From NCBI GenBank assembly GCA_964537935.1, contig CAZICT010000005.1, forward strand, positions 1 to 62,795: 62,795 nucleotides of DNA. Direction: 5' to 3'. The position numbers were made by a program, and so were the translations under genes. Shown here piece by piece: positions 1-62,795 of this stretch (positions are counted from its first letter, which is position 1; each line of letters opens with the position of its first letter). Source of the DNA: an uncultured Candidatus Saccharibacteria bacterium (lineage in GTDB: Bacteria > Patescibacteriota > Saccharimonadia > Saccharimonadales > CAZICT01). The notes beneath the pieces are model-generated. The model made no database searches. It had not been told where the DNA came from and saw only the letters and a list, made by a program, of their open reading frames with translations.

Positions 1-1007
1 GAAATGGGTTGTTAGTCAGGCAACGCATGTCACTTGAGGCAGCTCGTAACATCGAAGTTGTTTTATTCGATAAGACAGGCACCCTTACAAAAGGAGAACA
101 AGGGGTGGTTGATATTGCTGCTCCCGATTACGATAAAGATAAGCTATTAGCTCTTGCAGCTAGCGTTGAATCGGAGTCCGAGCATCCAATTGCGAAAGCA
201 ATTATGCATTCAGCACAAGAACGTAGGTTAAAAGTGGGCCAGTCAACAGGGTTTACGGCGCTATCGGGGCGTGGAGCCAAAGCAAGTGTTGGCGGTAAAG
301 TTATCCATGTTGGCGGACCTAAAATGCTAGAAGAACTCAAAGTAGATATTTCCAAAAATCTGGCAGATGAGTCAAAGGCGGCGGGCGCAGAGGGTAAAAC
401 GGTAGTGTATGTGATTGAAGGTGGGAAAGCACTAGGCGCAATCATGCTGGCGGATGTGATACGGGAAGAATCTAAAGAAGCAGTTTCTTTACTTAAAAGC
501 GCAGGCAAAAGAGTCGCATTATTGACAGGTGATTCTAAGGCGGTTGCGGCGTGGGTAGCCAAAGAACTTGGCATTGAAGAGTGCTTTGCGGAAGTCTTAC
601 CTGAGAATAAAGCAGAAGTTGTAAGCAAGCTACAGTCCGATGGAAGCCGGGTAGCAATGGTAGGCGATGGTGTGAATGACGCCCCTGCGCTAACGCAAGC
701 TGATGTAGGTATTGCGATTGGAGCTGGTACAGATGTTGCAATAGAGTCGGCAGGAATCGTACTAGCGAGCAGCGATACGAGAGGTGTATCTAAAATCGTC
801 GTACTGTCCAAGGCTGCATATCGCAAAATGGTGCAAAATCTTGTTTGGGCAACTGGCTACAATGCTCTGGCTATTCCTTTAGCGGCAGGCGTTACTGCTG
901 GCTTGGGATTTGTTCTCTCGCCAGCAATAGGTGCTGTACTAATGTCTCTCTCAACTATAATAGTTGCTGCTAATGCTCAGCTGCTAAGAAGACTAAGACT
1001 TGATTAA
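1..1007 (+). CDS. heavy-metal (P1B-like) P-type ATPase, C-terminal fragment; 5' end lies outside the window
   Basis: Frame is open from the window edge. Phosphorylation motif FDKTGTLT, hinge motif GDGVNDAPAL, two C-terminal TM helices, TAA at 1005-1007. Confidence 0.85.
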   Translation, partial: NGLLVRQRMSLEAARNIEVVLFDKTGTLTKGEQGVVDIAAPDYDKDKLLALAASVESESEHPIAKAIMHSAQERRLKVGQSTGFTALSGRGAKASVGGKVIHVGGPKMLEELKVDISKNLADESKAAGAEGKTVVYVIEGGKALGAIMLADVIREESKEAVSLLKSAGKRVALLTGDSKAVAAWVAKELGIEECFAEVLPENKAEVVSKLQSDGSRVAMVGDGVNDAPALTQADVGIAIGAGTDVAIESAGIVLASSDTRGVSKIVVLSKAAYRKMVQNLVWATGYNALAIPLAAGVTAGLGFVLSPAIGAVLMSLSTIIVAANAQLLRRLRLD

Positions 1008-1142: not shown

Positions 1143-1396
1143 GTCTTCGATACCGCCGACTCTAGTCCGTGGCCTCTTCAAAAAACAAAAATAGCCACAT
1201 TTTTGATAATGCGAACGATTAGTGAGCAATATATGCCGAATCCATTCGTTCCAGCCTTATAAAAAATAGAACGAACCGGTGTGAAGCTATAGTCCCGCCC
1301 GCCTGTCTTTCCGGCAGGACGGACAGGTGTCTCGCACCACACTGAACACAGTGGAGCCGCTACAACAAGCATCTCGTTTCTTGTTATCATACTGTC

Positions 1397-2314: not shown

Positions 2315-2539
2315 ATCATTCGACAAAATAAATAGCTTCACAAGCCCTCTGAGCTCAGGTAGGTCTACATTCTCTGTGGGTCGTTAAAAATATGCCTGAT
2401 AAGCGCCACCATTTAAATAAGTACATAACCTCTAGAAAGCGTTAAGTATAGATAGCAGATGGCGCAATCTAAAGATACTTAGAGCCGCTAACCAATGAAT
2501 TTGCTATTATAAATACACCAATTAGGAGAATTTAGAAGA

Positions 2540-3809: not shown

Positions 3810-4160
3810 ATGACGAATACATCATATGAAACTTTCTTCGCGACATTGTCGGGCAATAGCCGCCTGGATATCCTGAAATATCTGCAAAAGAACGGCAGTC
3901 AAAGCGTTACGGAGATATCAAACGGCACAGGAATTGAGCAGTCGGCAGTTTCTCACAACCTCAATAAGCTACTCACCTGCCAGTTCGTGCATATCGAAGC
4001 ACGCGGCAAACATCGCTATTACACGCTAAACGAGGAGACTATCGTTCCACTGCTCAGACTTATTGACCAACACGTTGCCAAATTCTGTGACGGCAAATGC
4101 AGTAGCTGTATTAATACCAAGCATGCCAATGCTGCTAAGGCCGGTCAAACCGTTTCCTAG
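3810..4160 (+). CDS. ArsR/SmtB-family winged-helix transcriptional regulator with a Cys-rich tail
   Basis: RLDILKYL...VTEISNGTGIEQSAVSHNLNKL HTH pattern. C-terminal CDGKCSSC. Confidence 0.8.
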   Translation: MTNTSYETFFATLSGNSRLDILKYLQKNGSQSVTEISNGTGIEQSAVSHNLNKLLTCQFVHIEARGKHRYYTLNEETIVPLLRLIDQHVAKFCDGKCSSCINTKHANAAKAGQTVS

Positions 4161-33630: not shown

Positions 33631-35604
33631 ATGTTAGGAAGATTAACGCTCGACGCTTTGCCAAAGGATCCGATTGTATTGTTTGGCGTACTGACGATGA
33701 TGCTTGGTGGCCTTGGTGTGGTAGCGGCTCTGACTTATTTCAAGCGCTGGAAGTGGTTATGGAAAGAATGGCTAACATCTCTAGACCATAAAAAAATCGG
33801 AGTCATGTACATAGTTGTGGCTGTTTTAATGCTACTGCGCGGCCTGATGGATGCTTCTATGATGCGTGCCCAGCAGGCGCTTGCGGTCGGTGAATCTCCC
33901 GGTATTTTATCTTCGGATCACTTTCAGCAAGTGGTTACCGCTCACGGCACCATAATGATTTTCTTTGCCGCTATGGGGCTGATGTTCGGAATAATTAACC
34001 TGGTTTTGCCTTTGCAGCTTGGTTCCCGGGACGTGGCTTTCCCTTTCTTAAACTCCACCAGTTTCTGGCTGTTTGCCATGGGTGCGGTACTAATCAATAT
34101 ATCGCTTGGCATCGGAGAATTTGCCGCTACCGGCTGGCTGGCCTATCCGCCGCTTTCCGGGCTTGAATACAGCCCGGGGGTCGGAGTGGATTATTGGGTC
34201 TGGGCCTTACAGATATCAGGTGTGGGAAGTTTGCTGTCCGGAGTTAACTTCATAGTAACAATCATAAAAATGCGCGCACCTGGCATGACACTCATGAAGA
34301 TGCCGATATTTGCCTGGAGCGTGCTTGTAAGCATGCTTTTAGTCATCTTTGCATTCCCGATTCTTACAGCCACACTGGGCATGCTCGGGCTTGATAGGTT
34401 GCTTGGTATGCATTTCTTTACGTCTAGTTTTGGCGGCAATCCGATGATGTACGTTAACCTTATTTGGGCTTGGGGTCATCCGGAGGTATATATTTTGGTA
34501 TTACCGGCCTTCGGTATATTCTCCGAAGTCGTTGCCACATTTTCGCGTAAGCGGCTTTTCGGATATCCATCAATGGTAGCGGCCCTGGTGGCTATTACCG
34601 TATTGTCGTTTATTGTATGGCTGCATCATTTCTTTACGATGGGTGCCGGCGCCAACGTGAACGCGTTCTTTGGAATAATGACGATGATAATCGCTGTGCC
34701 CACCGGTGTAAAAATTTTCAACTGGCTGTTTACGATGTATGGAGGAAGGATACAGTTTAAGACTCCGATGTTGTGGTTTTTGGGTTTTGTGTTTACGTTT
34801 ACTATCGGTGGGGTGACCGGAGTATTGATGGCCGTGCCGGCGATTGATTTCCAGGTTCACAACAGTCTGTTTCTTGTGGCTCATTTCCATAATGTGATCA
34901 TCGGCGGCGTTGTGTTCGGCTACTTCGCGGGCCTTACTTATTGGTTTCCAAAGATATTTGGCTTTAAGCTAAACGAATTTCTGGGTAAATGTGCCTTCTG
35001 GTGCTGGGTTGTAGGGTTTGCAGTGGCATTCATACCTCTCTATGCTCTAGGACTTATGGGCGCTACCAGGCGTCTGGATGGATATGATGAATCACTGGGC
35101 TGGCAATGGCTGTTTATTGTGGCTGGCGTTGGGGTAATGATAATTATCACCGGTGTGATATTCCAGGTATTGCAGTTGATAGTTAGCATCATTCAGCGTA
35201 AGGCAAACCGGGACTTGACCGGCGATCCTTGGGACGGCCGTACCTTGGAATGGTCGCTGCCTTCACCGGCACCGTTTTATAATTTTGCCGTCATACCCAA
35301 GGTTCATACCCGTGACGCATTCTGGGAAATGAAACAAACAAAGGCCGGTGATAAACCCAAGAAACCTGTCTATTCAGATATACATTTACCAAAAAATACG
35401 CCCATGGGACTGTTTATTGCCGTAAGCAGCTTGGTGATTGGATTTGCCTTAGTTTGGCATATCTGGTGGCTGGCGCTGATTGGTTTGCTGGCTCTTATTG
35501 CATGCATTATCGTTAGAACTTCCGATGATAATACGGAGTACACCATAACTGCCGCGGAAATAGAGAAATTGGATAAAAAGTATAGCCGGAGACAGTACGC
35601 ATGA
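33631..35604 (+). CDS. cyoB: heme-copper quinol oxidase subunit I
   Basis: [31 protein letters not shown]. 657 aa, polytopic. Confidence 0.95.
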
Positions 35605-62100: not shown

Positions 62101-62293
62101 TGTCGTGTGTCAGAAACTCATCGAAATTGATTGGACCGTAAAGGGTGCGATAATCGCTGACTATAGCTTCAGCTACTTCGTTTCTAAGACCTACACCCCC
62201 CTCAATGTCAACGAGTTCATATTTTATTGAACGCATCGAACCGGTGCCTCCCGAGTAGGCAATCCGTTGGTCGTGAAGTCGATAACCTTTCAT
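59123..62293 (-). CDS. cas12d: type V CRISPR effector, Cas12d (CasY)-like, 1056 aa
   Basis: C-terminal split RuvC: I = RFIGVDIGEYGLAW (D756, nt 60026-60028); II = ARLSFEYEVS (E842, nt 59768-59770); III = HHIADADLQAAFNIAIRG (D1011, nt 59261-59263). Zn ribbon C901xxC904 ... C1001x4C1006 lies between II and III. No HNH domain. The N-terminal ~750 aa has no known motifs. The gene is 146 nt from a CRISPR array. Confidence 0.8.
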   Translation of the reverse strand: MKGYRLHDQRIAYSGGTGSMRSIKYELVDIEGGVGLRNEVAEAIVSDYRTLYGPINFDEFLTHDNSPSLMDFWLKALSLGFVFSNQNSIENEFLGYLGKKTIWQNCYNKLAASIKDVVDEQAFCQFLIKAHRGVERKTDEQRQKIIFNLVKKSVDPAVMEKIAKKWSEGFSLDKDQLEFKCTIFAIPVPKLPERSMTLSFALDPSFPVIACDDRTEFMDRIVDFYESRIDAAQTKRFLAIGDNGNYFNGVFGNLLTCLKQEDIDTVAKFLDDTYGFNEFAEIRNRLGELKKLADKIDDSKLVNKWSDYRSDFNGTVESWYSNRVSKQEAALEQLDGKIDKKTGEVTGGLRELLKNISDALPGGNNIKEGILAETLDFLRDHGAKIDRRFSDELESYLATLKTDLNEWSQNNKENELPAGWQRQLSKRIQSSPLFFGENKYALWKKLLNLKELIREDIKKLETVIKERFDDYEITDKQVDMLAVLWQRISSDGDPEIKRRLETIERELRVKFADRNERKRFFVSGYERTKVSQLAIENKISVSRLVELSELGDLYEKTKSTPQENNLLRDTVHLSKIVVSALVRGSDKEREVVLMHSNLGGYSSLISRRKFITRSTLQAVNGGQVNLGIRNNRYVYALLPDKFGQRSEITLFNKTYNFTKADLRERVSLAPALEVRSSKYQVQFLDWFMGLHNRKKTELGAGGAFCIAEKTIELDWSGDRPQISKISDPRVFVSQPFEIKPRSKGTRTAENRFIGVDIGEYGLAWNLIEANDGIIDQLESGFIADPQQQKLKSAVKRLRENQVRATFNSSDTRIARIRESLIGTYRNQLEDLAVRKNARLSFEYEVSAFEAGGSRISRVYNSVKRADIRKKDNNPANKMAWGDFGANNWGLEMTAAGTSQTCSRCKRWASLAIDINSNYELETYEDKLLKTAITDGEIRLLGKQDTKRVIKGKDLKILIYKAMRPNDEGLGMEIVKRRKNWGKLSQKFGTGKPRGNIAIFVCPYTDCHHIADADLQAAFNIAIRGYAKAQSDGKVRTVEEIHKFVKDLNYAPVELQG

Positions 62294-62351
62294 TAATCTC
62301 TCAGCGTCAATCTGAAGACCCGTACTTTACATGTGTATCAAGGTATCTGGT

Positions 62352-62422
62352 AAAAAGGCTAAAGTGTACGCCTTTAAGTACACCGGAAAATCCCAGAATT
62401 TAAGACTATAGAGGCTAAAGGC
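62352..62422 (-). ncRNA. candidate anti-repeat (scoutRNA/tracr-like) RNA between the cas gene and the array
   Basis: The plus strand carries ctATAGAGGctAAAGGC (62406-62422) and AAAAAGGC (62352-62359), which copy the crRNA-sense repeat AAUAGAGGAAAAAAGGC. A minus-strand transcript would therefore be complementary to the repeat. Hairpin gtgtac/gtacac at 62364-62383. aggctaaag occurs twice. No expression data. Confidence 0.35.
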
Positions 62423-62439
62423 AGTTTAAAAACAAAGTC

Positions 62440-62795
62440 TAATCTACGATTCTATTTTTCGAGGTGAGTTCCTAACGTTCTTGCCTTTTTTCCTCTATTT
62501 TTCGAGGGGTCTATTTTTAGACAGTTGCCTTTTTTCCTCTATTTTTCGAGGCTAGCTGAATAGCCTCGCGGCCTTTTTTCCTCTATTTTTCGAGGCCGAA
62601 GCTATGTTGTAGGGCCTTTTTTCCTCTATTTTTCGAGGCCTCAACAGTTCGGTGCTGCCTTTTTTCCTCTATTTTTCGAGGACTCTAATAACTGGCGGTG
62701 CCTTTTTTCCTCTATTTTTCGAGGATCCCGTAGTTTGCTATTGCCTTTTTTCCTCTATTTTTCGAGGCTAGCTGAATAGCCTCGCGGCCTTTTTT
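62440..62795 (-). CRISPR. CRISPR array with 25-nt repeats and 18-19-nt spacers, truncated by the window end
   Basis: Seven identical full repeats gccttttttcctctatttttcgagg start at 62483, 62527, 62571, 62614, 62657, 62700 and 62743. A partial eighth starts at 62787. A degenerate repeat at 62440-62464 keeps 14 nt (tctatttttcgagg). Spacer lengths are 18, 19, 19, 18, 18, 18, 18, 19 nt. The minus-strand orientation is inferred. Confidence 0.95.

Follow-up and report, generated by a model that had tools for sequence, protein, structure and literature searches.

A predicted scoutRNA gene between cas12d and the CRISPR array of a Saccharibacteria-like genome

What do the 146 nucleotides between the start codon of a CRISPR nuclease gene and the degenerate terminal repeat of its array encode, and could this be an RNA that the nuclease needs in addition to crRNA? 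The question is raised by a locus in a stretch of DNA of 62,795 nucleotides (hereafter the window), where the gap occupies positions 62294-62439. A reading made without database searches (the sequence-only reading) gave the gap these same limits and proposed that its minus strand carries a short anti-repeat gene similar to a scoutRNA, mainly on the grounds of two segments that copy part of the repeat, ctatagaggctaaaggc at 62406-62422 and aaaaaggc at 62352-62359. Both segments lie at these positions, as do the hairpin gtgtac/gcctttaa/gtacac (62364-62383) and the two occurrences of aggctaaag (62356-62364 and 62412-62420) that were noted along with them. RNAs of the scoutRNA kind were reportedly described in 2020 by Harrington et al. 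in Mol Cell, the abstract of which is said to mention a conserved five-nucleotide sequence complementary to the crRNA repeat. By definition, a scoutRNA has a short dock, of 3-5 nt or slightly longer, which is complementary to the anchor formed by the 3′ end of the repeat in the crRNA (PMC9522604).

The effector gene, the array and their common direction

The 1056-aa ORF beside the gap is Cas12d (CasY), which agrees with the Cas12c/Cas12d-type effector named earlier: it scores 861 bits against the NCBIfam equivalog NF033951 (cutoff 250), and the Cas12c model of NCBIfam is a distant and weak second (2e-15). It has 30 homologues, several of which carry the name Cas12d at NCBI and come from Saccharibacteria or Nomurabacteria MAGs. 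In a 27-sequence alignment the RuvC residues D756, E842/E844 and D1013 are kept in the homologues, and the N-terminus is conserved from M1, therefore the gene is likely to start at 62293; the public gene call (P0001, 1037 aa) starts 19 codons later. A sequence search of the PDB with the effector returned no Cas12d structure, and Cas12c2 (7v93) was the sole nuclease match.

The window is chromosomal, with LigA, LeuS, CyoB and tRNAs present, and its LeuS is nearest to Candidatus Saccharibacteria MAGs (61% identity). CyoB, the cytochrome o ubiquinol oxidase subunit I (33631-35604, 1093 bits), stands amid an otherwise Saccharibacteria-like small-genome setting. No cas1 is present in the window; in relatives it is found beyond the array.

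The array repeat, which has the plus-strand form GCCTTTTTTCCTCTATTTTTCGAGG, reads CCUCGAAAAAUAGAGGAAAAAAGGC on the minus strand and shares its layout with the KbCas12d crRNA repeat cuccgaaaguaucggggauaaaggc, namely a hairpin on the 5′ side and then a tail rich in A that ends in AAGGC. The repeat sequence and the lengths of repeats and spacers also match KbCas12d. Because the minus-strand repeat is laid out like that of KbCas12d, crRNA, cas12d and any scoutRNA are read leftwards in the window, so the crRNA sense is that of the cas gene, as had been supposed. The scout-proximal terminal repeats of relatives are degenerate in a manner similar to that of the window, with the anchor lost. One 19-nt spacer, ctagctgaatagcctcgcg, is present twice in the array (62552-62570 and 62768-62786), and an 8-bp palindrome, flagged by a terminator scan on the plus strand, arises from this spacer and the ends of the repeats beside it.

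A conserved element directly upstream of cas12d

For comparison, 44 Cas12d loci (designated by L numbers) were used, and 10 more were added later. Two covariance models were built, R1 from four loci (L001, L003, L004 and L007) and R2 from 16 sequences of 15 loci, and the window and its closest relative were left out of both. The closing stem of the element, P1, was out of register in MAFFT alignments; the model was seeded with four in-register sequences and the others were realigned to it.

Each model finds a single significant match in the window when both strands are searched, R1 at 62346-62397 of the minus strand (30.1 bits, E 1e-4) and R2, in the 62.8 kb, at 62345-62398 of the same strand (32.5 bits, E 1.5e-6), the latter score being below that of most family members (37-72 bits). 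R2 also matches immediately upstream of cas12d in 10 of the 10 later-added loci (37-63 bits), and about 35 related loci carry the element at an equal position and strand. In ~30 loci a single strand bears, in this order, the leader, the array, the degenerate last repeat, the conserved element (~53 nt) and cas12d; in a distant clade cas12d precedes the array, yet the element is still directly upstream of the gene. A search of the window against Rfam, at permissive and gathering thresholds, gave nothing relevant and no match for a scoutRNA.

Throughout the family the element has the same order of parts, which consists of the closing stem P1, UUUCC, the hairpin P2 (with a loop that is mostly GAAAGA), UUAGCCUU and the 3′ arm of P1 (Table 1). 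The UUCC of the linker is nearly invariant, and the KbCas12d scoutRNA has UUCC as well. In a 16-sequence alignment 93.6% of the cells are paired, as compared to 51% in shuffled alignments and 28-49% with slid partners, and changes on both sides are seen in 14 of the 15 pairs. The 27-sequence alignment A7, which includes the window, gives 92.0% versus 50.5% for shuffled sequences; here 90% of the cells are paired in P1, with both-side changes in 7 of 7 pairs, and 93% in P2, with such changes in 7 of 8. RNAalifold finds P1 and P2 unaided, and in the 27-sequence alignment the G-U pairs of both stems are compatible only with the cas12d-sense strand. Alignments that are fitted to a model are biased towards what was modelled, but the controls with slid partners, and the compensatory changes among the three closest loci, argue that the structure is real. 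In these three loci the core is conserved and the 5′ flank has diverged; the P2 arms read GGUGUAC/GUACAC in the window, GGUGCAC/GUGCAC in L023 and GGCACAU/AUGUGC in L045, with a compensatory U-A to C-G change between the window and L023 and a different stem in L045. The single-sequence fold energy is unremarkable (z 0.6 to -1.25).

Thus the gap holds a scoutRNA-like gene, with the R2 match, covarying stems and a dock that is found in 28 of 28 loci, but the weight that the sequence-only reading gave to its parts has to be shifted. What is conserved is the portion that it treated as secondary, i.e. the hairpin and GCCUUUUU, closed by a UCUGG/CCAGA stem that it did not see. Of its two anti-repeat segments, the one at 62352-62359 is the dock within the conserved core, whereas the 17-nt block at 62406-62422 falls outside the core and obtains 4.1 bits with R2. 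Covariation across loci, which had been proposed as a check, is seen for P1 and P2, and the dock shows a compensatory change in L007; the block at 62408-62422 gives way to sequence of no likeness in L023 and L045.

Homology, position, strand, covarying structure and conserved complementarity to the repeat are shown by these results, and the minus strand of 62345-62398 very probably encodes the scoutRNA with which the Cas12d/CasY (type V-D) system of this Saccharibacteria-like genome works. The RNA of the gap is an expected component of an already known system, since Cas12d nucleases are known to depend on such a small RNA, and in this the earlier proposal was right. By analogy with published work on KbCas12d and CasY15, the scoutRNA would be expressed, act in trans and be required for cleavage.

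Some relatives depart from the common layout. L017 has two tandem scoutRNA cores after one array (2752-2802 and 2863-2913; 58 and 54 bits with R2), which differ in their stems and have the dock GUAGCCUUG in common. In L007 and L022 a single repeat is left and the scoutRNA is intact. Insertions of 60-90 nt between the last repeat and the scoutRNA are found in L005, L006, L007, L008, L022/L053, L054 and L050, and carry long GC-rich hairpins (e.g. L022 683-718, AAATTCCGCACTCGCGA/TCGCGAGAGCGGAAATT) that may be terminators uncoupling the array transcript from the scoutRNA.

Table 1. Features of the cas12d-array region of the window, and inverted-repeat arms in related loci (positions in the window unless a locus is named)
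Feature	Position	Strand	Basis
cas12d (casY) gene, 1056 aa	59123..62293	(-)	NCBIfam NF033951 and homologue alignment
Conserved element CCTTGATACACATGTAAAGTAC, between scoutRNA core and cas12d	62322..62343	(-)	conserved in the window, L023 and L045
Predicted scoutRNA core UUCUGGGAUUUUCCGGUGUACUUAAAGGCGUACACUUUAGCCUUUUUACCAGAU	62345..62398	(-)	covariance models R1 and R2, built without the window sequence
P1 3′ arm CCAGA	62346..62350	(-)	R2 match, alignment A7
Conserved UUAGCCUU motif, includes dock GCCUUUUU at 62352-62359	62352..62362	(-)	repeat complementarity
P2 hairpin GGUGUAC-UUAAAGGC-GUACACU; stem 62378-62384 with 62363-62369, loop 62370-62377	62363..62384	(-)	alignment A7, helix 2
Linker UUUUCC	62385..62390	(-)	conserved columns, alignments A2, A6 and A7
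P1 5′ arm UCUGG, partner 62346-62350	62393..62397	(-)	alignment A7, helix 1
Imperfect anti-repeat GCCUUUAGCCUCUAU, 5′-adjacent to the core; possible second anti-repeat or promoter part	62408..62422	(-)	RNA duplex
Degenerate terminal repeat CCUCGAAAAAUAGA..., AAGGC anchor lost	62440..62464	(-)	read from the sequence
CRISPR array, 25-nt repeats CCUCGAAAAAUAGAGGAAAAAAGGC, 18-19-nt spacers, runs past the window end	62483..62795	(-)	
Inverted-repeat arms, L023	3637-3664 / 3950-3977		
Inverted-repeat arms, L007	3639-3693 / 3885-3939		
Inverted-repeat arms, L022	629-648 / 823-842		
Inverted-repeat arms, L003	1105-1121 / 1359-1375		
Inverted-repeat arms, L051	2220-2238 / 2455-2473		

Pairing with the repeat and likeness to known RNAs

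The dock GCCUUUUU is able to form 8 contiguous Watson-Crick pairs with AAAAAGGC, the 3′ end of every repeat in the window, which bears out the pairing that had been suggested for 62352-62359. Dock and repeat end pair over 5-10 contiguous nt in 28 of 28 loci, and GCCUU is conserved in the dock apart from L007, which has GUCUU and is compensated (GUC:GAC) by GAC in its only repeat-like unit. When the core is cofolded with a crRNA (repeat plus spacer), as the sequence-only reading had recommended, the repeat hairpin is kept and the repeat tail is paired with the dock. Pairing of the UUUCC linker with GGAAA of the repeat was considered and rejected, for the linker is invariant and that part of the repeat is variable, and Kb and the distant clade have no complement.

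The RNA is predicted to fold into P1 (UCUGG/CCAGA), the UUUUCC linker, P2 (GGUGUAC/GUACACU) and a single-stranded UUAGCCUUUUU. The GCCUU(UUU) dock would pair with AAAAAGGC, the anchor that closes the repeat on its 3′ side, beside the spacer, and the 5′ hairpin of the repeat itself (CCUC/GAGG) would remain folded meanwhile. Cas12d would bind the resulting crRNA:scoutRNA pair and could then cleave DNA at sites specified by the spacer of 18-19 nt. Coordinates, strand and fold of a predicted cofactor RNA are hereby set for a compact (1056-aa) Cas12d, and the definition of this RNA is needed for reconstituting Cas12d as a tool or for designing a single-guide RNA. In addition, the 27-sequence structural alignment and the covariance model could seed an RNA family, as Rfam has no match in the window.

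KbCas12d/CasY.1, which belongs to the same effector family, has a scoutRNA1 (aaaggguuuccaguuuuuaacuaaacuuuagccuuccacccuuu) that is active in vitro, and its minimal version is the most active form (bioRxiv 10.1101/2023.12.12.571249). Kb scoutRNA1 and the window element share the order of closing stem, UUCC, hairpin, UUAGCCUU and P1 3′ arm, and ACUUUAGCCUU is identical in the two (11 nt). Furthermore, in both cases the RNA is on the crRNA strand and the dock pairs with an AAGGC anchor at the repeat 3′ end, and the window core adjoins the last degenerate repeat as it does in L034, the repeat of which is identical to the Kb repeat. In contrast, the stem sequences are unrelated, P1 has 5 bp in the window and 7 in Kb, and the dock 8 nt and 5 nt, respectively; a repeat-antisense segment precedes the core on its 5′ side in the window and in many relatives, whereas Kb has a direct-sense degenerate repeat there. 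Since the Kb-like locus L034 reaches only 16.7 bits with R2, the link of the window to the tested Kb RNA rests on layout and motifs.

With respect to known classes, the RNA has the properties of a scoutRNA: it is part of a type V-D locus, adjoins cas12d and the array on the crRNA strand, has a short dock with conserved GCCUU for the 3′ anchor of the repeat, and shares the secondary structure common to characterised scoutRNAs, as judged from the models, the covariation and the Kb order of parts. Cas12c is the sister family of Cas12d, and its scoutRNA/tracrRNA uses a dock:anchor pairing of the same short kind, 3-5 nt (Cas12c2 cryo-EM, PMC9522604; Cas12c1, PMC9723637), but differs from the window scoutRNA in fold and sequence. 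Cas12c needs its RNA for RuvC-dependent pre-crRNA processing, a role that is unconfirmed for Cas12d (PMC7889808). The tracrRNAs of type II and V-B/E/F/G/K are also non-coding, lie beside array and effector, contain an anti-repeat and are needed together with crRNA, but they form a long duplex, whereas the anti-repeat of the window core is of the 5-10-nt kind, with no long duplex of the RNase III type. The longest contiguous complementarity amounts to 8 nt (dock), or to 6+7 nt with a bulge (62408-62422), and since this is not the long, near-continuous anti-repeat:repeat duplex of type II or V-B, the window RNA is not a canonical tracrRNA.

A further class, the cr-like RNA, was reportedly described by Shmakov et al. 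in 2023 as a standalone regulatory RNA in which a unit resembling the repeat precedes a pseudo-spacer, the latter matching a cas promoter or some other site. On the plus strand, the partial repeat at 62406-62422 is accompanied by the pseudo-spacer AGTTTAAAAACAAAGTCT, for which a search of the window that allowed up to 3 mismatches gave no second site. As this pseudo-spacer has no target within the window, a cr-like regulatory RNA was rejected.

The segment upstream of the core and the flanking elements

On the strand of the array, the core comes immediately after the degenerate last repeat, therefore the scoutRNA would be either the tail of the pre-crRNA transcript or a transcript with its own start, in the latter case at the -10-like TATAGT located 7 nt upstream of P1 (62405-62410). 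A scan of 62150-62795 found no sigma-70-type promoter or intrinsic terminator on the minus strand, and the plus-strand 'terminators' that it returned are artefacts of repeats and spacers.

The TATAGT overlaps the block at 62408-62422, and there is about an even chance that this block is not part of the functional RNA. It would then be either a repeat fragment in inverted orientation that is decaying, stemming from a rearrangement at the old array end or from the origin of the scoutRNA, or a part of the scoutRNA promoter. The low R2 score and the loss of the block in L023 and L045 point in this direction, as does a borderline significance at the DNA level, where flanks of 84 nt and 45 nt, aligned locally to the repeat in reverse complement, yield p 0.06 and p 0.17, respectively. 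The 7-nt and 6-nt identical blocks that the sequence-only reading saw in 62406-62422 are present, but they can be aligned only with a 1-nt gap (GCC-TTTAGCCTCTAT vs GCCTTTTTTCCTCTAT), and the pattern ATAGAGGNNAAAGGC, picked after the sequence was seen, occurs once in the window versus 0 expected. A promoter would fit the spacing between TATAGT and P1, which is the usual distance from a -10 box to the start, and TATAAA, TATTAA or TAGTAA stands at the corresponding position in many relatives; however, no acceptable -35 element was found. Decay alone, in turn, hardly accounts for the enrichment across the family and for the way in which the flanks track their own repeats.

These two observations argue for a functional RNA that begins further 5′ and includes 62408-62422 as a second, tracrRNA-like anti-repeat, to which we assign a chance somewhat short of even. 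The block would pair with AUAGAGG...AAAGGC, so that the scoutRNA would touch the repeat at two separate places, or would touch two repeats that are neighbours in the pre-crRNA. The 40-nt 5′ flank of the window forms an RNA duplex with the repeat at -16.0 kcal/mol, compared to -7.9 kcal/mol for shuffles (p 0.007), and the same test gives p<0.05 in 14 of 27 loci for the 5′ flank as opposed to 3 of 27 for the 3′ flank. At the DNA level, antisense matches to the repeat of the same locus are over-represented in the stretch of 40-45 nt that precedes P1 (Fisher p 3e-9, p<0.05 in 8 of 24 loci; 3′ flank p 0.59), and the 5′ flanks match their own repeats better than foreign ones (permutation p 2e-4; e.g. 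L004 TTTTACTCCC and L054 TTTACTCCT), but because the loci are related these Fisher, permutation and combined p-values are optimistic and overstate independence. Among the 24 near-clade loci, the best antisense segment ends 3-10 nt before P1 in ~10, and in the others its distance is 16-36 nt. Against a second anti-repeat, L023, L001, L003, L008 and others have no significant match, the window block fits the repeats of other loci as well as its own, and the pairing would open the hairpin of the repeat and compete with the dock for AAAGGC; in addition, the minimal Kb scoutRNA1, the form with the highest activity in vitro, has no such segment. A precedent exists in Cas12c, where cryo-EM revealed three disjoint stems between scoutRNA and repeat (PMC9522604, PMC11246509).

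In the distant clade, nt 8-18 of the repeat recur in antisense at ~49 nt 5′ of the dock, as an exact copy 10-12 nt long, which covaries in L042 (repeat GGGTTAGTAACC, element GGGTTACTAACCC). In L031, L032, L033, L035, L037, L040 and L042 of this clade a hairpin (e.g. GGGUUCCUAACCC) stands directly 5′ of the scoutRNA P1, ~100-140 nt upstream of cas12d, and reproduces the hairpin of the repeat in exact reverse complement over 10-12 nt; TATAAT-like boxes precede it.

Given the mixed evidence on the block, the kinship of the loci and the overlap with TATAGT, the second anti-repeat is held to be possible and not established. It may be exact and 10-12 nt long in one clade, and imperfect and ~10-16 nt long in the clade of the window; dock and second anti-repeat may together span most of the repeat, as in Cas12c2, or may link two adjacent repeats during pre-crRNA processing. 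More generally, it is a tentative and rather doubtful suggestion that Cas12d scoutRNAs are not purely of the short-complementarity kind, many of them having a second anti-repeat 5′ of the core that tracks their own repeat, and that an inverted repeat flanking the cassette is perhaps an operator of cas1 and cas12d. If real, a family-wide second anti-repeat bears on how scoutRNA and repeat stay joined, and in Cas12c the picture of 'short complementarity' needed revision once structures appeared.

Other assignments within the gap fared worse. The array-proximal copy at 62403-62440 (AGACU...AGUCU with GUUUUUAA and CUUUAGCCU, Kb-like) was rejected as the true scoutRNA, because it obtains 4.1 bits and the family alignment, R1 and R2 all place the homologue at 62345-62398; with the same score, this copy does not support a tandem second scoutRNA like that of L017. 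It is also highly improbable that the conserved element acts in cis only, be it on the cas12d mRNA, as its 5′ leader or attenuator, or at the array end, as a terminator or insulator. In favour of this, it is always immediately upstream of cas12d on the same strand and is followed by no terminator. Against it, the Kb homologue functions in trans when provided as a synthetic RNA of its own, and the invariant GCCUU can pair with the end of the repeat in 28 of 28 loci, a property for which a leader has no use; moreover, a separate conserved promoter-like element lies between the core and cas12d.

This last element, at 62322-62343, is by inference a candidate for a shared cas promoter or operator. 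In relatives the matching element belongs, as one of two arms, to an inverted repeat on either side of the cassette of leader, array and scoutRNA, and in the window the second arm would fall past the window end. Pairs of such arms, 17-55 nt in length, are found in L023, L007, L022, L003 and L051 (Table 1). One arm is on the leader side and faces cas1, which is often divergent, the other is located between the scoutRNA and cas12d, and the inverted repeat may serve as a promoter or operator shared by cas1 and cas12d.
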